Virus record (IMG/VR): IMGVR_UViG_3300005831_000006 | Location: 1-61,072 of that record | DNA from: a virus | Lineage: Duplodnaviria; Caudoviricetes | Direction: 5' to 3' (one strand) | DNA length: 61,072 nt | The notes under the pieces: model-generated | Database searches by the model: none | What the model was told of the DNA's origin: nothing | Seen by the model: the letters and a program-made list of their open reading frames with translations, nothing else | In this document: in pieces, positions 1,166 to 51,146 of the stretch | Position numbering within the stretch: the stretch's first letter is position 1 | How the letters are laid out: every line of letters begins with the position of its first letter | Made by a program: the position numbers and the translations under genes

Positions 1166-2995
1166 TTAGGGCTGCGGAAATGAAGTTTCGATAATATTTT
1201 TGTACAGCGAAGTCGGGTTGATCAGTGTGAGTTTTACACCCGCTAATGCGAGAATATCCCACGTATCATGTACCCAGAAGCTGATTGCATCGATTGCACT
1301 CTGACGACTATCACGGCTTTTGACGATACGCATGTCATAGGCATGATAGATACCGGAGGGCTGTACTTTCGGACTGTTACTGCGAAGGAAGCCATAAGTT
1401 GCACGGCCTTTCCAACGTTTATCGGACGAACCAATAAACTTTACACGCTGACCGAAATTGTCGGAATAAGCATAGGTTGCGATTTTCTTGAAACCGAAAC
1501 GTACTTCATTCGAATAATTCGACTCGGTGCTGTACTTGGTGTCGACAAAACGACGGATGTCAACCTGATAACCTACGAAAACCCATTCGCGATCGGATTC
1601 CTGTGTGAACTGAGTGTCACTTTCGGCAAGGATAAGGATGCTGCTAACAGTGTCCTTGATACCCTCTTCGATCCAGCTGAGTGGGCGTTCACCACCGTTA
1701 CCGCGCTGAGTCAGATCGATTGTTTCCTCAGCAGCAAAACCACCAAGTCGGCGATATGCGATATATTTGCTGAGAAGTGCTTCATTGGAAACGCATGCTT
1801 CGATGTTCTGAATCATGTGCCGTTCCATGTCGTTATCATTGATACCGGCAAGGATATTTGAGAATTCATTCGAAACGTATTTAACGATATCGGAAGACCC
1901 GGAATTTGCAGATACGAACTCATCCATAACTGTATCCATGGCAAGTCCGACAGACATGGTTTTACGAGGCGATGCAATCACGCGAGCGGTGATAACTTCA
2001 CGACCATGACGGATGCTTGAGGAAGCATTTGTAGGATTGAGGAATGGAATTTCGAACAATACGCCCTTAATACGATTTGTCATACATGCGGTAATACGAT
2101 ATTCACCGGTGTCACGATTGACATAAGCGGTAAAGAAATCACTTACAACCGTTGTATTATCTGCCAGTTTGAAAGAAAGCTCAACGCTGATGTGTCGAAT
2201 TGAAACAACATCGCCGCCGTAGCCTTTTACTTCTGAACGAGCAGAAACAACCACAGGAACGAGTTCGGAAGGGAGAGGAGCATTGGTTGTATCGATACGG
2301 GGATCAACCATGACTTCGGAAATCCGAATATCTTCGGCTAATGCCCAGTCGCGAATGTCTTTACCGGATTCGGTAATAACATTACCCTTAACACCAAGCT
2401 TTGCATACGATTTTCCACCAGCAACGAGAATACCGGTTTGTCCAGGAACAGCACCACCAGGAGTGAGATCCACATAATTTGGGTTCAGCATACCGGCAAT
2501 TGATCCATCACGAATTGCATTCGGGAGGAACTTACGGTCATTGATATCGGTTGAATCGGAGTCAATAGCATAGGCAATCTCGAACTGAATCGGGAATTCC
2601 CTGTCTTTATGATTAATGGCTTTATATACGTCAAGCATGATGCTTTTCGCATTGTAACCAAGAATGGTTGCCGGGATGAAGGCATCGAGAGCACCAAGGT
2701 TTGCACCAGGAGCAGTCGTATGATCGAACCCTTCTTCGGAGCGGAACAAAGAACTTGCTGCACCGTAGGTATGATGTTTCATTGAATTTGAGATCTGGTG
2801 TGTGATACGTTCACGTTCACTTTCCTCAGAAACATCGGCGAGAAGAAGGCTGAGATATGATTCGGTAGTGACACTATCACTAAAAATGCGACTCAGATTG
2901 ACGGAATTGAAAGGATCCAACCGAAATTCTGATTCGAATGATTGTGAGAGTTCGTCTATTCTGGCGTTAATCGGCTGATCAACAATTTTTGCCAT
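1166..2995 (-). CDS. major capsid protein precursor (jumbo phage)
   Basis: 609 aa; strong GGAGG RBS; markedly GC-richer, biased codon usage typical of the most highly expressed gene; clustered with prohead protease and an acidic scaffold-like gene; N-terminal region carries S-x-E motifs. Confidence 0.7.
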   Translation of the reverse strand: MAKIVDQPINARIDELSQSFESEFRLDPFNSVNLSRIFSDSVTTESYLSLLLADVSEESERERITHQISNSMKHHTYGAASSLFRSEEGFDHTTAPGANLGALDAFIPATILGYNAKSIMLDVYKAINHKDREFPIQFEIAYAIDSDSTDINDRKFLPNAIRDGSIAGMLNPNYVDLTPGGAVPGQTGILVAGGKSYAKLGVKGNVITESGKDIRDWALAEDIRISEVMVDPRIDTTNAPLPSELVPVVVSARSEVKGYGGDVVSIRHISVELSFKLADNTTVVSDFFTAYVNRDTGEYRITACMTNRIKGVLFEIPFLNPTNASSSIRHGREVITARVIASPRKTMSVGLAMDTVMDEFVSANSGSSDIVKYVSNEFSNILAGINDNDMERHMIQNIEACVSNEALLSKYIAYRRLGGFAAEETIDLTQRGNGGERPLSWIEEGIKDTVSSILILAESDTQFTQESDREWVFVGYQVDIRRFVDTKYSTESNYSNEVRFGFKKIATYAYSDNFGQRVKFIGSSDKRWKGRATYGFLRSNSPKVQPSGIYHAYDMRIVKSRDSRQSAIDAISFWVHDTWDILALAGVKLTLINPTSLYKNIIETSFPQP

Positions 2996-35162: not shown

Positions 35163-35263
35163 TAAATGGGGAAGTGATTCCCCATTTTTTTAATGTATTA
35201 AATTCATAATAAACACTATAACTAATTATATATAAATACTTGTATAATTAACAAGGAGATGTT

Positions 35264-35332
35264 ATGATTTATCAAAATGAGCCGCCATGGGTACCTCCAA
35301 TTGATTCTGATGATGAAGATTGGGTACTCTGA
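35264..35332 (+). CDS. 22-aa acidic micropeptide MIYQNEPPWVPPIDSDDEDWVL
   Basis: AAGGAG RBS 5 nt upstream, TATATAT motif at 35227, terminator hairpin at 35347-35376; below the ORF-track size cutoff. Confidence 0.65.
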   Translation: MIYQNEPPWVPPIDSDDEDWVL

Positions 35333-35373
35333 AAAACACAAAGATAAAAATGGGGAAATAATCCCCATTTTTT

Positions 35374-38022: not shown

Positions 38023-38050
38023 GATAATGGAGGATAAAACCTCCATTATC
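38023..38050. terminator. bidirectional intrinsic terminator
   Basis: GATAATGGAGG-ataaaa-CCTCCATTATC between convergent genes. Confidence 0.7.
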
Positions 38051-38217
38051 TATTTTGTATAAAAAAAGACGAAAATAGCATTTCGTAAGTCCTTATGTAC
38101 CAACGACTTACAACGGTCGAAAAAACCATATTTTACAAAAATCGCTTCAGATGCAATATAATCATCAATATGGGTAATTGTACTAATTAAGTATTTAAGC
38201 TCATCTGAGCGAGTTTA
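38044..38217 (-). repeat. 174-bp dispersed repeat, copy 1 (inverted relative to 50746-50919)
   Basis: hand alignment with the reverse complement of 50746-50919: near-identical apart from scattered substitutions and a flipped 13-bp centre. Confidence 0.95.
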
Positions 38218-39570
38218 TAAACCATCTGTATTAAGGAATACTGTATATTCATTAGTTTCTTTTACAATTACAAGATTTCCATATATCTTAGTAATAATAC
38301 CTATTATCTCTTTGGACTTCATAGGGGGAAGTGTTTTATTTTTTGGTATTTGAAATAGTATAGACTTTGACATTCTATTTGTTTTACTATTAAAATTAAT
38401 TATTTTAAAATCTCTAGATATAATTTTATCAAGAGTTTTCAAAACGAAATAAGATGCTATATCCAAAGAATCTACACCATTATTTATTATATCCGCTCTA
38501 GTTATATTTCTAATAACTTTAATTGAATTCGGTTTAACTTGAGTTCTATTATCAGCATGAACTCTCTTTTTATCGATAGGGTATGTATAAATCTTTTTAT
38601 CTAAACCATTAATAACTTTAATTATCTCATTTGCAGTTAGTTCTGGGAGTTTCTTTTCCTCATCTTCCGGAACTTCAATATCAACAGCTCTCCCGAATAT
38701 ATGCATACTTCCAGGGTTACCTACAATTTTATTATATGATTCACACCTGGTTCCTGATATAATATTTATTTTACGACGATTTAATGATTCATATAAATTC
38801 TGAACAAATTCAACTATACCATAATCTACAAAATCTGTACCACACCCACATCTTATAGGATCACATTCAAATTGATCTCTATAAAAATCTTTACTTATTT
38901 TTATTCTGGGTTTATTATGTACTGAAACTCCAGAAAAATCATCACCTGTTCCTAAGAAATCTGATAACATCTGTTTAGCTTTTGAAAACAATGATTCTCG
39001 TTCTTCTAAACCATTATATCCACCATTTATTATCTTTGTAACTTTTCGTATATCTTCTGAATCAGATGGAATATTACAATTATTAGTATTCCAGAACCAT
39101 ACACCTGATTCAACCTTACCCTGAATTGTATCAAGATAATTTTCACATTGTTCAAGCGATATACCTTTATAGTTGGCAAACTTCTGATAATTCTCTTTTC
39201 CAGTAAGTTGAATTATACCTCTACCTCTATATCTCCATCCATCACCAGATTCTTCAGAACCATTACCCATTCTATTAGCATATACTCTATTAGCTATCAT
39301 TTCTGGTCTTCTCTCATAAGTTACAGCATCAGTATAGTCAAAATATTTACCGAATGTATTTAATAAACCTGTTGCTGAATAATTGAGATTTTCCTCAAAT
39401 TTAGTAAATCCTACAGATTCATGACCGCATTGTGCTAGAAACGAAGATACTCTACTAAGACTTGATATACCGTTATCTGGAAGTATTTTATTTAATAGTA
39501 ATTGAACTATTTTATTCCCTCTAGGAAATAGTGCTGCAAATACTGCTCCAGGTATTAATTTATTTTTCAT
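38215..39570 (-). CDS. endolysin: GH19 glycosidase + peptidase M15 domain(s)
   Basis: FLAQCGHES...EENLNYS, GDGWRYRGRGIIQLTGKENY, INGGYNGLEER (GH19); FEC...CGCG, ISGTRC...N, SMHIFGRAVDI, VHAD (M15 Zn peptidase); start moved to ATG 39570 (GGAG RBS); late-type motif at 39600-39611. Confidence 0.9.
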   Translation of the reverse strand: MKNKLIPGAVFAALFPRGNKIVQLLLNKILPDNGISSLSRVSSFLAQCGHESVGFTKFEENLNYSATGLLNTFGKYFDYTDAVTYERRPEMIANRVYANRMGNGSEESGDGWRYRGRGIIQLTGKENYQKFANYKGISLEQCENYLDTIQGKVESGVWFWNTNNCNIPSDSEDIRKVTKIINGGYNGLEERESLFSKAKQMLSDFLGTGDDFSGVSVHNKPRIKISKDFYRDQFECDPIRCGCGTDFVDYGIVEFVQNLYESLNRRKINIISGTRCESYNKIVGNPGSMHIFGRAVDIEVPEDEEKKLPELTANEIIKVINGLDKKIYTYPIDKKRVHADNRTQVKPNSIKVIRNITRADIINNGVDSLDIASYFVLKTLDKIISRDFKIINFNSKTNRMSKSILFQIPKNKTLPPMKSKEIIGIITKIYGNLVIVKETNEYTVFLNTDGL

Positions 39571-39729
39571 ATAATTCTCCATCATTGTTACATATATCTT
39601 ATTAAAATGTTAAACGGATTTTTCAAATCTAATTTAAATTATATATTTATTTATGAGTATAATAGTAGTGAAAGTACCAATAATGAAAAACATATCATCT
39701 ATTCACATAACTTTTAAGGCACAATTATC

Positions 39730-41973: not shown

Positions 41974-44900
41974 CTATTTAAATGAATTGAGATATTCCTT
42001 TGCTATCTGTTTAGACCTCTCAACTAAACAATGAGCCATAGTACCATACATCAAGATCGCATAACACATTCTATTTGTAATAGAAAATATCGATATACAT
42101 CCATCAAGTACGACACCATCTTCAGTGATTGGTTCCTGACCTTTTGGTATAACCTGGGCTACAATATTTTTCAAATTAGCAAAACATGTAGATTTATCAC
42201 CGACACCCATAGGAGTTTTATGAGAGATAAAATACTCTACTAATACAGCACCATCATTATTTACAACAGCACCATTTATTCTTGATGTAGTACCTGTTTG
42301 AGTAGGTTTTGTTGGTTTCAACATATTTTCCATTGAAACTGTACTTACACCATTTAGTTTATTATAAGCTATTTTCTTCTTTATACTCTTTTCCCACTCT
42401 TTAATAAATTTATATAAAGAATCAGTTAATTCCTCTAAAGGAACTGTGAAATATACTTTAATATCAACTATTTCACCAGTTGCATTTGATTTAGGCATTT
42501 GTTTAGCTGAATCTAGGATTGATTGATCTACATCACCTAGACTTGCTAACAATTCTGAAGTATAATCATCTTCACTATCTTCAAATGTAATTAGTGGATT
42601 ATATTTGTATACATAATCTCCTAATTTTTTATATGTTATCAAGTTCGTATTCTTTGACAAACTTATTTGTTTTCTCATTATAACTGTAGTACCCATTTTA
42701 TCAGCAAGGGTTTGAGTTATAGATAAACTATCTTCATCTGTAGTAGATTTTTCATGCATTACAAATTTAGCAAGAGTACCTTGAGTATTTCTCACATCAC
42801 CAAATGTATCTTTTTTGAAGAAATCTTTCTCATAAGCCAATATATCACCTTTTTTGATTTTTTGACCTTGTACTACATTTGGTATTATTTTATTTCCAAA
42901 GAAAAAAGAACTATTTCTTTGAATATCCATACCTAAATTAATAGATTCTTTACTTCCATCATCATATAATACAATGATAGTTCCGGTACTCTCATCCATT
43001 TTTTCAATAATACCCGTACCTTTTGCTTTAGGAACATAAGTTTCTCCTACAATATACGGAGATATCATGTCCATTCCGGTAGATATAATTGGTATAGATG
43101 CATTGTTGATTTTTATAATATGTTTTGTTTGGGTTGATGCTATTGATATACGTTTTGGATCATCATGAAAGTTAAGAAATGGGGCATCAAGCTCTTCTGC
43201 AGATGCTAAATTACCAATTTTCAACTTATCAATATCTGAAGAATTTTTAGTAAAATCAATATAACCACGTGTAGATAAAATTTTAGGATTCAATGTTAAA
43301 TGTTTAACAATACCTGCACCTGCTCCATCAGGAGAACTTACAGCCATAACTCCTATAGCACTATAATCAAATGAACGTTTTGCAAGATTGAAAACTCTGT
43401 CGTTATTAACTCCGCCAGGTCCTTTAAATGTAACTATCGATTTATTTTTTATTTCATTTATCGGATTTGTAGCATCGTAATTTTCAAGAATAAATGACTT
43501 ATGAAGAGCAGTCATTAATTGATCCTGTTGTATTGACATTCTACCCATACCACTACTATTTTGTTTATAGATTCTGTATTGGGCTGATATCATTTTATAA
43601 AGAATTACTGATATATTCTCATAACCACGTACACGATAATTCTCAAGATCTATTTCATTCTTATAGGAATTATCGATAAGTAATGAATTAGCATATAAAA
43701 ACAGTTCAAGAAAATCAGTAGGTAATTTAAGATCTTTTAAGATTTCTTCAGTAATTGGATCAATAAATAATTCACGAAATGCAGTATGACCTTTATATAC
43801 ATTTCTAGTTTTAAGTGTTTCATAAAAGTAATCTATATACGGTCGCTCTGTATCAAAATCGGCAAATGTATATTCCTCAGTACTCATATATGATAATCCA
43901 TTTAATAATAATGAAGCAGAAATATTTTCATCATTATAGTAGAGATAACCATCAGAAAAACGTATATATAGTCTCGTATCCTTTATAATACGTTTTTCAC
44001 TAAATTCAACATTAATTTTTTCTGTATTTAATATTTTTGATAGTCCGAATAATCCTCCAAGAAAAGATACTAAAGGAAATTCTCTACTTTGTACCATTAT
44101 TCTTGTATACATTCTTCGTTTGACTATATTCATAGTCGCTATTTTATCATATATATCAGGTATTACATTTAAGTCACGAATACTATCAAAAATATAATCA
44201 CATACGCTTTTTTTATCATTCTCGATATTATATTCTATGATAGTCCAAGTTTTCCAGTTAATACCTATAGGTAACATATTTGATTTAACTACATATGATG
44301 GAAATTTATTTTTTATCAGATTCCTTAAATCTTCCTGATTAAATATAAATTCGATAGATTTCATTTTATCGAAACCAACTATGAATTTATAATATTTACT
44401 CGCTATTACATCGTATTCAATAGTAGTAATGTAATTTTTATTATTCTTTTCATTATCCCCGGAAAAGATTTCAAATCCTTTAGTTGTAAGAAGATCTTTA
44501 CTTAGGAGTTTAAATAAAGATGAAATTCCTCTAGTAAGAGTAGAACCCTGTCTATATATGAAGCATTTATTATAACTTGATGAAATAATTACCTCATCAG
44601 GTTTACATTTCACCACAGGTAAAAATGTTAATTGCTTCTTTAATAATTTTCTGTTTCCTGATATCATTAGGAAACCATCATTGTCAACTTTTGGTATATC
44701 AATCTTAATGCTATGATTTTTCTGACGTTCATCAATAAATTTAAATACATATGTGTATTTTGATGTAGTTTGATCTGATGTATCATCTTTTGTAACATCA
44801 ACAATATGCATATTGACTGATTTATCAGTACTAAGAGATTTTACCATTGATAAGATATCGTGTTCCATCGTATTTTTCACGTATGATTTCTCAAAATCAA

Positions 44901-46398
44901 TAAGTGTCGAATTTTGTACAGATGGGTCATTAGAAACAGTATTTACACTCAATGTCCTCTCTATTAACTTAGCTTTAGTATCAGCCAATATTTCAGGGAT
45001 ACTTCTCCCATCAATAAAAATGCTTTTATACTTCTCTTTAGCAATATCGAGTCGTTGACGTTGAGCTTTAGTCATAGATGGTTTTGTTCCAACACCTACG
45101 GTATCTAATATCGATTTAATATCTTTAGTATCAGTTGTATCACCAGTTTTTCCACCGTCTTCAGTATCCTCAGTATCATCAAGCATACCTGTATCAGTTT
45201 CATCTTCTTGTTCTTCTGGAATTTCATCTTGTTCAAGATCATCAAGAACGGTGCTAATATCAGCATCATTATCAGCAATATCTTCTTCATTTATATCCTC
45301 ATCGACAGTGTCTTTTTTATTGATTTTATTTATAGCTGATAATCCGTTAGTTAGACTACTCTTATTTATAACATCGATAAGATTATCTAATTCATCGTCT
45401 TTCAACTCTGTTTCTGAATCATTATTTTTGATTGCTATAATTTCATCATCAGTAACTTCTTCTTCTACATCTTCAGTAGGAGATATATTAGTAGATATTA
45501 TCTTTTGAAATAGCATTTTCATTCTAAGTAACATCTGATTACCGTTAAGTTTTTTAACATTTTCATCTTCAGATGTGTTATATAAGAAAGAAATACCTCT
45601 ATTATTATAAAAAACAATAGAAACATCTTTTAATATTTCATAAATAGTGGTTAATGTTTTATCTTCCTTATAATTCATACTACCAGCTATTAACGATCTC
45701 ATAATAATCATCGGTATATAATTATCCAGATTGGTTTTAACCATTCTAGGAATTGATATAACTGATGGATTTAAAAATTTAACCATGCTCTGTGACATAG
45801 TTTTCACATTGATACCCATTAAAACCAATTTATGCACAGATGTTACACCTTCACCATACATAAACATACTTGTTTTGATAACTGTATTATCTTTATTAAT
45901 AGGATTGATTAAAACAAATTTTAACCATTCTATTATAAATGTATCAACATTCCTGAAAGCAAGTGGAGAATTCCATTTTTGAATATTATTAAATTCTGGA
46001 AAAACAGATGAGAGTATACTACTAAAATCGTATAAATAATTTCTTTTTACACGTTTAAAATATGTACTCTTATTTACTTTAAGAGAACTGAGTAAATCTG
46101 TAAGATCAAATAACTTATTAACTACTCTAATTGGTTTTCTCTCAAACATCATCTCTTTTAATCGTGCAATTTTTGGAATCCAATATAAGAAAACTTTTCT
46201 TCCATAAGAAAAACCTAAGATACACTTAACACCCTCTGCTATCGATTCTTTAGTGCGTTCAAATGGAAAAACTACACCTACATCATTTTTATTAATCGGT
46301 TTTAATCCGTCTTTATAATTTTCACCACTTTTAAGCTTGCGTAGACGCATACTCTTATAAATTGGTAATATAGCTTGTTTATTAGATGGTTCCATCAA
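41974..46398 (-). CDS. phage multisubunit RNA polymerase beta subunit (probably virion RNAP)
   Basis: FKGPGG, SPDGAGAGIVKHLT, HDDPKRISIASTQTKH, TDEDSL and GDKSTCFANLKNIV...DG...NRM correspond to RpoB regions; long phage-specific N-terminus with an acidic insert. Confidence 0.9.
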   Translation of the reverse strand: MMEPSNKQAILPIYKSMRLRKLKSGENYKDGLKPINKNDVGVVFPFERTKESIAEGVKCILGFSYGRKVFLYWIPKIARLKEMMFERKPIRVVNKLFDLTDLLSSLKVNKSTYFKRVKRNYLYDFSSILSSVFPEFNNIQKWNSPLAFRNVDTFIIEWLKFVLINPINKDNTVIKTSMFMYGEGVTSVHKLVLMGINVKTMSQSMVKFLNPSVISIPRMVKTNLDNYIPMIIMRSLIAGSMNYKEDKTLTTIYEILKDVSIVFYNNRGISFLYNTSEDENVKKLNGNQMLLRMKMLFQKIISTNISPTEDVEEEVTDDEIIAIKNNDSETELKDDELDNLIDVINKSSLTNGLSAINKINKKDTVDEDINEEDIADNDADISTVLDDLEQDEIPEEQEDETDTGMLDDTEDTEDGGKTGDTTDTKDIKSILDTVGVGTKPSMTKAQRQRLDIAKEKYKSIFIDGRSIPEILADTKAKLIERTLSVNTVSNDPSVQNSTLIDFEKSYVKNTMEHDILSMVKSLSTDKSVNMHIVDVTKDDTSDQTTSKYTYVFKFIDERQKNHSIKIDIPKVDNDGFLMISGNRKLLKKQLTFLPVVKCKPDEVIISSSYNKCFIYRQGSTLTRGISSLFKLLSKDLLTTKGFEIFSGDNEKNNKNYITTIEYDVIASKYYKFIVGFDKMKSIEFIFNQEDLRNLIKNKFPSYVVKSNMLPIGINWKTWTIIEYNIENDKKSVCDYIFDSIRDLNVIPDIYDKIATMNIVKRRMYTRIMVQSREFPLVSFLGGLFGLSKILNTEKINVEFSEKRIIKDTRLYIRFSDGYLYYNDENISASLLLNGLSYMSTEEYTFADFDTERPYIDYFYETLKTRNVYKGHTAFRELFIDPITEEILKDLKLPTDFLELFLYANSLLIDNSYKNEIDLENYRVRGYENISVILYKMISAQYRIYKQNSSGMGRMSIQQDQLMTALHKSFILENYDATNPINEIKNKSIVTFKGPGGVNNDRVFNLAKRSFDYSAIGVMAVSSPDGAGAGIVKHLTLNPKILSTRGYIDFTKNSSDIDKLKIGNLASAEELDAPFLNFHDDPKRISIASTQTKHIIKINNASIPIISTGMDMISPYIVGETYVPKAKGTGIIEKMDESTGTIIVLYDDGSKESINLGMDIQRNSSFFFGNKIIPNVVQGQKIKKGDILAYEKDFFKKDTFGDVRNTQGTLAKFVMHEKSTTDEDSLSITQTLADKMGTTVIMRKQISLSKNTNLITYKKLGDYVYKYNPLITFEDSEDDYTSELLASLGDVDQSILDSAKQMPKSNATGEIVDIKVYFTVPLEELTDSLYKFIKEWEKSIKKKIAYNKLNGVSTVSMENMLKPTKPTQTGTTSRINGAVVNNDGAVLVEYFISHKTPMGVGDKSTCFANLKNIVAQVIPKGQEPITEDGVVLDGCISIFSITNRMCYAILMYGTMAHCLVERSKQIAKEYLNSFK

Positions 46399-47035: not shown

Positions 47036-47206
47036 TTTTTTCTCATAAAAAGTAGTTAAATTACATTATTTATTATCATATTTCGCCATTTATCAAAATA
47101 TATATTCCATTTTATGCCCTTTTTAAAACCCTTAATTATATATATAGTATTTGCGAAGCAAATCTGAGCGAAGCGACACAACCACAATTCTATGTAGGAA
47201 ACCAAA

Positions 47207-47247
47207 TATAGACAGATACGACTCTCAAGGAGTCGTATCTATCTATA
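47207..47247. other. long hairpin in an intergenic strand-switch region
   Basis: TATAGAcAGATACGACTC-tcaag-GAGTCGTATCTaTCTATA, 18-bp stem with one mismatch and no T-tract. Confidence 0.85.
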
Positions 47248-47384
47248 CCATTGAAATCAATCTAATGATTATAATCGTTAATCATCGCATAGAAAGAAGG
47301 GAAAATCCAGTTGAGTGGAAAAGTGGATTACCCAAAAAATTTTGATATATTAGGATAAATAAAGATTTCTGCAAGAGATAGATA

Positions 47385-47432
47385 AGTTTCTTATTAGTTA
47401 GTAGTTTCTTATTAGTTAGTTATTAGTTTCTC
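47385..47432. repeat. tandem 18-bp repeat AGTTTCTTATTAGTTAGT x2 plus a partial copy
   Basis: read directly at 47385-47402 and 47403-47420, then TATTAGTTTCTC. Confidence 0.9.
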
Positions 47433-47598
47433 AATAGGTTTAATTTAAAAATATTTATAATATAAAATATTAATAGATTAAAGTTACCAAACCGTATATT
47501 GTATATAATATATGGGATATCAATCAAAATAAATTAAACCTTTATTGGATTAATTTTACTACACACAATGTTTGTACTACTTATGAAAGGGTGTTTTT

Positions 47599-48714: not shown

Positions 48715-50382
48715 ATGGTAAAGAAATTTAAAAAGAATTTGCTAAAATTACCAGCTGTAATTAATAGTAGATTCTTGTTATCTCTTCTGAAAGTGGTTAT
48801 ACATGGGGAAATAGGATCATCGAAGTTGACAATGATCGGTACGCTTTTAAAAATGGTTAATATGGCTGCGTATAGTAAGGATCCTGAAATTTATTCCATA
48901 TTAAAATCAATAGAGATATCGATTAACTGTAGATTGGATGATGTTAAAGATAATCATCTAATTACCAGTGTAATAACAGCGAGTATTTCTAATGAGGATA
49001 ATAAGGATATAATTTCAGGGTTGATAGAACCTATAGTATCAGGTTGCTTTAAACTTCCAGAAGCTGAAACGGCATACATATTAAACATTATCTCCACGTA
49101 TTTAAAGGTGGGATTTCTCTTAGAGTATAAAGATAGTATAATTGATAAATTCACTAAAATTGAATCTGGAAGTATGGGTGGTATTAATACACTTGTTTCA
49201 GATTTTGAAAAAGAAGTTGCAGATCTGCATGTTAAATTACATAAAACATTGAGCAGTGATGCAATTAGTGCGACTGATACAGTTTCAATATCAGATCCTG
49301 ATTTCTTTAAGAAATATTTTATCAATGTATATAAATTATCTAAGAGGAAAACCCGAGTTTTACGAACAGGAATTCAGAAGTTAAATGCACTGTTAAGTGA
49401 TCAAGGTGGTTTCTTAACCGGAAAGATGTATGTTATTAATGCTCCTATCAATTCATTTAAAACAGGATTGTTATTATACATAGCAAAATGGATTCAATTA
49501 TACAATAGTGCAATGTATATTGAAAAATTTAAGTTAACAGGTAAAAGACCCACCGTTTTAGTTGTATCATTAGAAAATACGTGGGATGAAAATACTGAAC
49601 GATTATTTTCAATGTATTCAAGTACAAACCTTAGTGAAGTATCAAATATAGGTGATGCTGAAGACATGTGGAAAAGCAATGTTAATAAAACAGACTCAAT
49701 TATTGATATTTGTATGATATATGCCAAAGCTGGTAGATTTAGTACATCGGATTTGGAATATCGTATAGATGAGATAGAATCACAGGGCGCACAAGTTATT
49801 GCAGTTCTTATTGATTATATGCGTCTTATGAGAGATGATTTAGCTAATGTTGAACCACGAATGAAAATAATCAGTATATCAACAGATCTTCATGAATTGG
49901 TGGCTCTCAGACCTGAGATGGTTTTGATAACAGCCCATCATACTAATAGAGATGGAGATATAATATTAACTGATATCGAAAATAGAGGTGGAGTTGACAA
50001 AGTTAAATCTCTTGGTAGACAACATCTCGTTGAAGCACATTCAGTAGAAGATGCAATTGATTTCTCGATGTATATTGTTCCTGAAACATCTGTCTATACC
50101 GGAGAAGTATTTTTAACGGTAAAGAAAGGTAAATGTAGATATAAGCGTTCTACTACTGAGTATTTTGCTCATGAGTTAAAGAATCGTTTTTATCTTACAG
50201 ACGATATTAATCTTGAAAAATCATTATCTATTGACAGTATTGCCGAAACCGCAAACAGTGGTCAAGGTAATAAACCGATTCATAGTGGAATGATGCAAAA
50301 TACCAATCGGACTTCTATACGTAAAAAAGAACCTGATGCTAAGAATAATATATTCGAGTCAGTTTTTACTGTTGATGAATAA
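48715..50382 (+). CDS. dnaB: DnaB-like replicative helicase
   Basis: RTGIQKLNALL...GGF, Walker A APINSFKTG, SLEN, Walker B IDYM, TAHHTNR, KCRY arginine finger. Confidence 0.88.
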   Translation: MVKKFKKNLLKLPAVINSRFLLSLLKVVIHGEIGSSKLTMIGTLLKMVNMAAYSKDPEIYSILKSIEISINCRLDDVKDNHLITSVITASISNEDNKDIISGLIEPIVSGCFKLPEAETAYILNIISTYLKVGFLLEYKDSIIDKFTKIESGSMGGINTLVSDFEKEVADLHVKLHKTLSSDAISATDTVSISDPDFFKKYFINVYKLSKRKTRVLRTGIQKLNALLSDQGGFLTGKMYVINAPINSFKTGLLLYIAKWIQLYNSAMYIEKFKLTGKRPTVLVVSLENTWDENTERLFSMYSSTNLSEVSNIGDAEDMWKSNVNKTDSIIDICMIYAKAGRFSTSDLEYRIDEIESQGAQVIAVLIDYMRLMRDDLANVEPRMKIISISTDLHELVALRPEMVLITAHHTNRDGDIILTDIENRGGVDKVKSLGRQHLVEAHSVEDAIDFSMYIVPETSVYTGEVFLTVKKGKCRYKRSTTEYFAHELKNRFYLTDDINLEKSLSIDSIAETANSGQGNKPIHSGMMQNTNRTSIRKKEPDAKNNIFESVFTVDE

Positions 50383-50400
50383 GATTGGTAACATTTAAAT

Positions 50401-50714
50401 GTATGATGTGTGTAGATGTAGTATATCTTATTGAATCTTGATATTAGAATGTATTCCATACGTGTAAATTATGTTGAAGTTAATATCGATACATACACTT
50501 AATTTGGAACATGTTTCAGTAGAAGGGTTTGATGATTATTATCTATGAATGCTATAATACACATTAAACATCATCAAATGTTAAATCTAATTTATTTAAT
50601 TGGATTTGACTTTCCTGGATAACATCCTCCATCAAACATATTGTATAAATATGTCCAGGAAACAAAGTATTTATACTTAAATAATACCAGGGAGTAACAT
50701 CCCTGGTTGTTTTT
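50401..50714 (+). ncRNA. candidate structured non-coding RNA
   Basis: AACA-TTTAAA-TG motif at 50390-50401, no ORF in the track, several stems including G-U pairs, terminator at 50686-50714. Confidence 0.55.
50686..50714 (+). terminator. intrinsic terminator
   Basis: ACCAGGGA-gtaaca-TCCCTGGT followed by TGTTTTT. Confidence 0.8.
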
Positions 50715-50745
50715 ATATATTTACACGTAGAACATTTAAATGATT

Positions 50746-50919
50746 TAAAGTCACTCAGATGAGCTTAAATACTTAATTAGTACAATTACCCATATTAATG
50801 ATTATATCTCATCTGAAGTGATTTTTGTAAAATATGGGTTTTTCGACCGTTGTAAGTCCTTATGTACCAACGACTTATGAAATGCTATTTTTGTCTTTTT
50901 TTATACAAAATAGATAATG
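50746..50919 (+). repeat. 174-bp dispersed repeat, copy 2
   Basis: reverse complement aligns to 38044-38217; preceded by AACA-TTTAAA-TG at 50731-50742. Confidence 0.95.
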
Positions 50920-50957: not shown

Positions 50958-51146
50958 ATGAAACCAATTGAGGAGATTATAAAAGATCTTGAAGAAAGGT
51001 GGAATAAGTTATTACTTGAAAAAACCACCTTTATTAAAAAATTGGACAAGAAATCTTTATTAGTAAATCTTTATACTAAAAGTTTTGATCATCAACTTGA
51101 GATACTTCTTAAGAAAATAGTTATTCTCGATGAACTTAGTAAATAA
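50958..51146 (+). CDS. small helical hypothetical protein (62 aa)
   Basis: AAAGGA RBS before ATG 50958; hairpin downstream. Confidence 0.55.
   Translation: MKPIEEIIKDLEERWNKLLLEKTTFIKKLDKKSLLVNLYTKSFDHQLEILLKKIVILDELSK

Follow-up and report, generated by a model that had tools for sequence, protein, structure and literature searches.

A candidate structured late non-coding RNA behind the DnaB-like helicase gene of an uncultured jumbo phage

Main finding

The region directly behind the DnaB-like helicase gene of an uncultured virus, positions 50390-50716 of the window (the whole 61,072-nt stretch of DNA that was analysed), is read here with a probability of about 0.5 as a stand-alone late transcription unit, whose product would be a discrete non-coding RNA of ~315 nt extending from G50401 to ~50716. 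The core of the original prediction, a late phage ncRNA, was supported by the motif statistics, the placement of the terminator, the strand-specific fold and the negative family searches, while the functions proposed for it were not, and all the elements that it had described were found again in the sequence. The RNA could be assigned to none of the catalogued families, and the databases and loci searched yielded no homologue of it; in this sense it is an orphan.

If the unit is real, it would add a structured late RNA of 315 nt with an exposed CCUCC that could be tested; should it prove to be no more than a 3' tail or a remnant of recombination, it would be ordinary. Jumbo phages with their own RNA polymerases make a few ncRNAs, and almost none of these has been assigned a function.

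The features of the helicase gene and of the region behind it were as follows.

48715-50382, plus strand: DnaB-like replicative helicase gene (555-aa ORF; precomputed PF03796 and PF20307, which were also on its relatives)
50390-50401, plus strand: late-promoter-like motif AACA-TTTAAA-TG (AACATTTAAATG), by fit to the AR9 late consensus
50401-50575, plus strand: 5' domain, a long irregular hairpin (minimum free energy, MFE, -41.9 kcal/mol)
50471, 50545 and 50600, plus strand: small ORFs of 25-26 aa, from the ORF list
50580-50610, plus strand: hairpin of 13 bp, two of them U-G pairs, with a loop of 5 nt; seen in both the MFE and the centroid structure
50611-50662, plus strand: hairpin with a 9-bp base, a 17-nt one-sided internal loop and a 6-bp top, in the MFE and centroid structures
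50622-50636, plus strand: ACAUCCUCCAUCAAA, the longest stretch predicted to be single-stranded (no longer run has an unpaired probability >0.7)
50665-50678, plus strand: small 5-bp hairpin of AAGTA (50665-69) with TACTT (50674-78), in the MFE structure and weaker in the centroid
50686-50716, plus strand: intrinsic terminator with the stem ACCAGGGA (50686-93) / TCCCTGGT (50700-07), found by two scans
50731-50742, plus strand: exact repeat of AACATTTAAATG, where the next unit begins; the 63-aa ORF at 50958 follows 227 nt further on

General features of the genome

The virus record consists of 61,072 bases with a G+C content of ~28% and a completeness estimate of ~25%. The best named relatives of the 555-aa helicase were the DnaB-like helicases of AR9/PBS1, with 30% identity. 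An RNA polymerase (RNAP) beta-like product was encoded by a 1474-aa ORF on the minus strand (41974-46398), in which Rpb2 domains 3 and 6 were matched, both weakly (domain 3 narrowly passed the cut-off with an E-value of 2e-4, and domain 6 did not reach it); this inventory of RNAP homologues was drawn from ~25% of the phage genome. Other products identified by Pfam were a NAD-dependent ligase, an SMC-like ATPase and the exonuclease domain of a family-B polymerase. The source is a jumbo phage, uncultured and with a distant affinity to the AR9 type.

By the gene list made here, the coding share of the window was ~91.5%, which bears out the earlier description of a tightly packed genome, and 5188 nt (8.5%) were non-coding. 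Another feature of the window is a G+C-rich island at 1046-2900 (0.45-0.50 versus ~0.28 elsewhere), spanning a 609-aa ORF (1166-2995, minus strand) without a Pfam match, which may have been acquired from elsewhere.

Coding potential behind dnaB

The stop of dnaB ended at 50382 and the next credible start was the ATG of the 63-aa ORF at 50958, and the interval from 50383 to this ATG was the longest non-coding gap of the window. No ORF longer than 26 aa was present on the plus strand within 50401-50714, and the absence of a credible ORF from the ~300 nt following the dnaB stop was thus confirmed. A GGAG/GAGG/AGGA box was carried by none of the small plus-strand ORFs, compared with 32 of the 50 listed genes. 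Reading TAG as Q, or using translation table 4, opened no plus-strand frame across the region, and tblastx of the region against every fetched relative locus gave nothing, including no trace of the ORFs that the relatives carry in their island at this place. The idea of a decayed ORF thus gained no support from the tblastx search or the alternative-code checks.

Promoter motif

The late promoter consensus of phage AR9 is given as AACA-(6N)-TA/G, transcription starting at its last base (PMC5312081). The motif AACA-TTTAAA-TG, which had been noticed after the dnaB stop, was confirmed at 50390-50401 and fits this consensus, from which the transcription start is predicted to be G50401. The plain consensus, AACA-(6N)-T[AG], had 94 matches in the window, 22 of them in non-coding DNA, and 16 of these 22 lay no more than 130 nt upstream of a gene on the same strand. 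A refined motif, AACAT-N3-A-N-T-R, was derived from the gene-proximal copies and occurred 20 times in the window; 12 of these copies were located in the 8.5% of non-coding DNA (~7-fold enrichment) and the other 8 within coding sequence. Ten of the 12 non-coding copies were followed within 130 nt by a gene on the same strand; those at 50390 and 50731 were not. In general, the late-type motif was located 20-65 nt upstream of many genes of the window.

The exact 12-mer AACATTTAAATG was present only twice in the window, at 50390 and 50731. With one mismatch allowed the 12-mer was not enriched (5 matches versus 2.56 expected, and as many in 11 of 100 shuffles). The two exact copies are direct repeats flanking the candidate ncRNA unit, their core CATTTAAATG is palindromic, and the pair could be a mark of cassette exchange via recombination at promoter sequences. 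Sigma-70-like sites showed no excess in the window (34 versus 41.4 expected from shuffles). The intergenic enrichment of early-promoter patterns of the TATATATT type was not clear in the window, and no early promoter is claimed at 50714.

Terminator and its placement

The terminator predicted to end the stretch was confirmed at 50686-50716, with an 8-bp stem (5 G-C pairs), a 6-nt loop and the T-rich tail TGTTTTTATA. It was situated 303 nt downstream of the dnaB stop, and no other terminator was found between the stop and 50686. Among the 40 terminator-like sites in the scan of the window, 30 were close to a stop codon of the same strand (-3 to +50 nt). Four outlier sites (8837, 14506, 20399 and 50706) lay inside a gene or were terminators of the other strand, counted there before, read in reverse, and two more (47241 and 59184) had no same-strand gene stop within 800 nt. 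The real exceptions in placement were four, namely 50686, 38050 and the pair 35185/35348; the terminator at 38050 (minus strand) was 164 nt past its stop with a repeat element between, and the pair 35185/35348 framed a tiny gene. A spacer of ~300 nt before the terminator is therefore atypical for this phage, since 30 of the 40 sites are near stops and only four are real exceptions.

The two terminators around the tiny gene are bidirectional and ~160 nt apart (window 35188-35347), and they frame a 22-codon ORF (ATG at 35265, AAGGAG ahead of it), for which an acidic peptide is predicted.

RNA secondary structure

The 13-bp stem was formed by the arms GTTAAATCTAATT (50580-92) and AATTGGATTTGAC (50598-610), and the base of the following hairpin by TTTCCTGGA (50611-19) and TCCAGGAAA (50654-62). 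The stems listed in the original prediction were all present, with two reservations: the pairing of ATGTATTCCA with TGGAACAT requires a 2-nt bulge, and the stem TTTGATGAT (50528-36) / ATCATCAAA (50570-78), although readable in the sequence, was absent from the minimum-energy fold and competes with the pairing of the 5' end. The two U-G pairs of the 13-bp stem, which had been taken to point to a plus-strand RNA, were confirmed together with strand-specific folding, and on the minus strand both wobble pairs turn into A-C mismatches.

When fold energies were compared with those of shuffled controls, the plus strand was far better than its shuffles and the minus strand was not. For 50400-50714 the plus strand gave -84.9 kcal/mol (z -5.41, 0 of 100 shuffles as good), while the minus strand gave z -1.98 with 4 of 100 shuffles as good; a repeat run of the whole unit gave z -5.70 (plus) and -2.15 (minus). 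The 3' domain (50576-50685) reached z -5.75 on the plus strand (0 of 200) versus z -1.79 on the minus strand (9 of 200), and the 5' domain (50401-50575) reached z -2.36 (3 of 200) versus z -0.13 (81 of 200).

As a genome-wide control, 640 segments of 285 nt were folded on both strands (1280 folds) with correction for G+C. The body of the unit without its terminator (-69.5 kcal/mol) ranked 8 of 1280, and because some of the seven better segments were coding, its folding is unusual and not unique. A strand asymmetry equal or larger was observed in 30 of the 640 segments, and the asymmetry alone says little beyond the composition of the transcribed strand. The predicted folding of the region is considered to exceed chance to a moderate degree and to be specific to the plus strand.

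Four CCWGG sites were gathered within 93 nt (50614, 50655, 50687 and 50702), versus 39 in the whole 61 kb, and both the 50611-50662 hairpin and the terminator have them as their G+C cores. The 8-nt sequence TAACATCC was also present twice as a direct repeat, at 50620 and 50695. Judging from these sequences, alternative pairings between the 50611-50662 hairpin and the terminator may be possible.

Search for known families and homologues

In the whole window, no Rfam match was obtained at the gathering score, in a search that took in 6S RNA, tmRNA, phi29 pRNA, group I and II introns, riboswitches, ROOL/GOLLD and all other families. Five matches appeared at E<=10, all at chance level (best E 0.36, 20.7 bits versus a threshold of 69), and no 6S RNA, pRNA, riboswitch, T-box, leader or C-rich regulatory RNA was among them. 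ARAGORN found no tRNA or tmRNA. The earlier view that the RNA is not a tRNA, tmRNA or group I intron agrees with these Rfam and ARAGORN results, and the possibility that it belongs to a known Rfam family, which had been named as an objection, received no match in the covariance-model search. The roles once suggested, a decoy or anti-defence RNA, regulation of RNAP or packaging, were left without support: 6S, pRNA and other Rfam families gave no match at E<=10, and the 13-bp hairpin had no look-alike. A separate candidate, an RNA anti-CRISPR mimicking a solitary CRISPR repeat, gained no support: a degenerate pattern of the 13-bp hairpin gave 0 matches in the genome contigs and in the viral contigs, in an exact pattern scan that a diverged mimic would escape.

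Blastn of the region against 50,697 phage records yielded no match; against all the fetched loci it yielded chance-level matches at unrelated positions only, and nhmmer yielded none. BLAST against the whole records of L004, L005 and L006, which are loci of relatives, gave at best an E-value of 0.015 over 20 nt. A covariance model of the 3' domain, built on a single sequence, was run against G000-G003 and 14 loci, and its best foreign E-values were 0.6 and 1.1. An exact scan of the viral contigs for a 20-mer of the CCUCC loop returned 0 matches.

Relatives and the interval after dnaB

Thirty proteins were found as relatives of the helicase, with identities from 79% to 25% (the closest, P0002-P0010, at 74-79%, on contigs of up to 18.8 kb), and 16 viral loci and 9 metagenome loci were compared at the DNA level. 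Queries of the viral contigs with the single DnaB and with the 612-aa protein, and of the genome contigs with the DnaB alignment, found no relatives. In the close clade the gene order was a 359-aa gene, dnaB, a variable island, a 612-aa gene and a 1796-aa gene, and the island between dnaB and the 612-aa gene measured 0.9-4.3 kb with ORFs differing in each relative.

In L004, L005 and L023, whose DnaB proteins were 64-68% identical to that of the present phage, a match to AACA-(6N)-T[AG] began 1-7 nt past the dnaB stop (L005 and L022 are the same contig). Between this motif and a terminator, 108 nt in L004, 263 nt in L005 and 228 nt in L023 were free of ORFs, and the units defined by motif and terminator after dnaB were as follows.

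L004, 6654-6790: promoter-to-terminator unit
L005, 6660-6941: promoter-to-terminator unit
L023, 6650-6908: promoter-to-terminator unit

On the plus strand and with their terminators included, they folded with z -7.1 (L004), -2.8 (L005) and -5.0 (L023), and the homologues of the flanking genes in these three loci were preceded by the same AACA-type motif. The closest relative with downstream sequence, L021/L020 (DnaB 76-77%), had no motif, and ~125 nt led to a terminator followed by two ORFs. L006 (DnaB 47%) had a terminator 6 nt past the stop, and in the ten loci formed by L006 and nine more distant ones the terminator came 0-13 nt past the stop without the motif. Altogether, downstream sequence was available for 6 lineages, and 4 of these had the motif 1-7 nt past the dnaB stop.

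A homologue search downstream of dnaB in related phages had been proposed, and the sequence was found in none of the relatives. The five post-dnaB units could not be aligned pairwise by local alignment (10 pairs, all z<=2.72), and the k-mers shared among them were AT-rich words only. What seems to be kept across the relatives is the position only.

Alternative explanations

The main rival of the stand-alone unit is a long, structured 3' UTR of the helicase mRNA. Transcription of dnaB would then end at 50686, the AACA motif would be there by chance or serve as a weak internal promoter, and the folded spacer would either shield the mRNA or do nothing. The region does lie on the same strand as dnaB with no terminator between the stop and 50686, the L021/L020 spacer runs for ~125 nt to its terminator without a promoter motif, and 8 of the 20 refined motifs are in coding DNA. 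The 3' UTR is nevertheless rather unlikely, as a 303-nt tail would be atypical where 30 of 40 terminator-like sites come within 50 nt of a stop, the motif recurs 1-7 nt past the stop in 4 of 6 lineages despite unalignable flanks, and more distant relatives terminate 0-13 nt past the stop. A further possibility is that cassette shuffling in the hypervariable island produced the stretch as a transcribed and functionless remnant, left between AACATTTAAATG copies by recombination at identical promoters. The unit is indeed flanked by the only two exact 12-mer copies, with a 174-nt repeat next to it, the dnaB-to-612-aa interval varies from 0.9 to 4.3 kb with differing ORFs in each relative, and the sequence is found in no relative; but the excess folding is strand-specific, which would be unexpected for decayed coding sequence, a protein-level trace of the relatives' island ORFs was absent by tblastx, and phage genomes that are ~91% coding would rarely retain 300 nt of junk, so that such a remnant is considered quite unlikely.

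A leader or attenuator, with transcription from 50401 stopping at or passing the terminator and controlling the 63-aa, 612-aa and 1796-aa genes, would make use of the four CCWGG cores, which would let the 5' arms of the 50611 hairpin and the terminator pair, and of the 8-nt direct repeat TAACATCC at 50620 and 50695. It is very unlikely, given that the second exact promoter copy (50731) lies downstream of the terminator and the downstream genes therefore need no read-through, that Rfam gave no riboswitch, T-box or leader match, and that the terminator-forming fold dominates the predicted ensemble. The last two readings are held to be extremely unlikely. One of them is an element acting as DNA beside the helicase gene, such as a replication origin or a packaging or protein-binding site, which would suit an AT-rich stretch with many inverted repeats adjoining dnaB; against it, the stems depend on U-G pairs, the minus-strand 5' domain folds no better than shuffles, and a more origin-like region is present at 47036-47598, upstream of the operon. 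The other is one or more micro-proteins from the 25-26 aa ORFs at 50471, 50545 and 50600; these ORFs exist, but they have no Shine-Dalgarno box at a working distance, compared with 32 of 50 genes, and their lengths would match what chance gives at the stop-codon density of AT-rich sequence.

Other non-coding elements of the window

Two other non-coding elements were observed in the window.

50746-50919, plus strand, and 38044-38217, minus strand: 174-nt element in two copies with 91% identity, found by self-comparison
47036-47598: non-coding region of 563 nt upstream of the 359-aa/dnaB operon

The first copy of the 174-nt element is placed between the second late-promoter copy and the 63-aa ORF, and the second copy in the 164-nt spacer from the stop of the gene 38215-39585 (minus strand) to its terminator. 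In its 11-bp closing stem, one compensatory change from A-U to G-C distinguishes the copies. A 26-nt hairpin within the repeat (7-bp stem, GTAC in the loop) is flipped between 50852-50877 and 38085-38110, with a 100% match in the orientation opposite to that of its flanks, that is, a hairpin inversion. An exact scan of the viral contigs for a 26-mer of the repeat returned 0 matches. Two possibilities for the element, judged by its sequence, are another small structured RNA and a mobile cassette with a regulatory role. The region 47036-47598 contains an 18-nt unit twice in tandem (47385-47420), AT-rich tracts and an 18-bp near-perfect hairpin at 47207-47247, and is a candidate for a replication origin or another RNA locus.

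Possible mode of action

The stretch ACAUCCUCCAUCAAA belongs to the 50611-50662 hairpin, where it lies in the one-sided internal loop. Its anti-Shine-Dalgarno-like CCUCC (50626-50630) has a predicted unpaired probability of 0.87-1.00 at all five bases. Each of the other four post-dnaB units had at least one motif of the CUCC/CCUC type that was predicted to be largely unpaired, and in the L004 unit a hairpin of 11 bp had CCCUCC in its loop of 13 nt. In the five post-dnaB bodies minus their terminators (976 nt in all), CCTCC occurred 4 times versus 0.37 expected from the local rate (P 6e-4), and CTCC or CCTC occurred 10 times versus 3.0 expected (P 1e-3); these P values are indicative only, since the hypothesis was formed after the sequences had been viewed.

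For the candidate RNA, transcription by the phage's own multisubunit RNA polymerase would begin at G50401, directed by the AACA-(6N)-TG promoter, and would end at the intrinsic terminator, giving a non-coding RNA of ~315 nt that would fold into the long 5' hairpin and three 3' hairpins. The exposed CCUCC (in 50622-50636) could then pair in trans with ribosome-binding sites of the GGAGG type and lower the translation of target mRNAs late in infection. Genes of this phage often carry GGAG- or GGAGG-type ribosome-binding sites, so the pairing of CCUCC is plausible. A search for an extended target of the loop gave 3 matches including itself versus 3.18 expected, which is the chance level, and the complement of the 15-nt loop had 2 non-self matches with 2 mismatches each, neither at a start site; the sequence searched for targets was the window alone, about a quarter of the phage genome. 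The masking of Shine-Dalgarno sequences is the preferred mechanism, a speculative one, put forward with low confidence on the basis of the predicted structure.

With still less confidence, this clade of AR9-like jumbo phages may keep a slot after dnaB for a fast-evolving late RNA, made up of a promoter 1-7 nt past the stop, a folded ncRNA of 110-300 nt and a terminator. Its sequence would turn over between lineages, each exposing a C-rich, anti-SD-like loop, and the RNA would mask ribosome-binding sites or shut off translation late, on host or early phage mRNAs. If the unit is real, a slot that is kept while its sequence is not would point to fast turnover driven by selection, which is expected of RNAs acting on the host.

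Comparison with known systems

The candidate unit shares with the late units of AR9 the form of the promoter, the start predicted at its last base and the setting in a jumbo phage with an RNAP beta-like gene. It differs in that the DnaB-like gene of AR9 (g007) has no such gap and is followed by the next gene 11 nt later, and in that the helicases are only 30% identical. Late units of the AR9 type further go with split multisubunit RNAP homologues encoded by the phage and with a uracil-containing template. Late transcription of AR9 by its non-virion RNA polymerase is described as including internal and antisense late transcripts, and a description of the candidate RNA of the present phage was not found in the main text of that paper (PMC5312081).

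In other jumbo phages, ncRNAs were reported for phiKZ (PMC8244752), and 'four non-coding RNAs' for PA5oct (PMC7318152). As far as these reports describe them, they resemble the candidate in being ORF-less phage RNAs from promoter-to-terminator units, mostly without an assigned function, whereas there is no relation in sequence or family and the hosts and promoter types differ.

Gram-positive RNAs of the RsaE/RoxS and RNAIII type have C-rich loops that pair with Shine-Dalgarno regions. The likeness of the candidate to them lies in a CCUCC that is predicted to be accessible, in a loop of a stable RNA with several hairpins and a terminator at its end; in contrast, it has no Rfam match at E<=10, and one C-rich motif is present here where those RNAs have several.

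Arbiol et al. are reported to have proposed in 2010 that promoter/stem-loop cassettes mediate modular shuffling in the hyperplastic regions of T4-type phages. The present locus is similar in its hypervariable island and in a unit bounded by identical promoter sequences, whereas the T4-type cassettes combine early promoters with protein-coding morons and here a late-type motif accompanies a non-coding unit.
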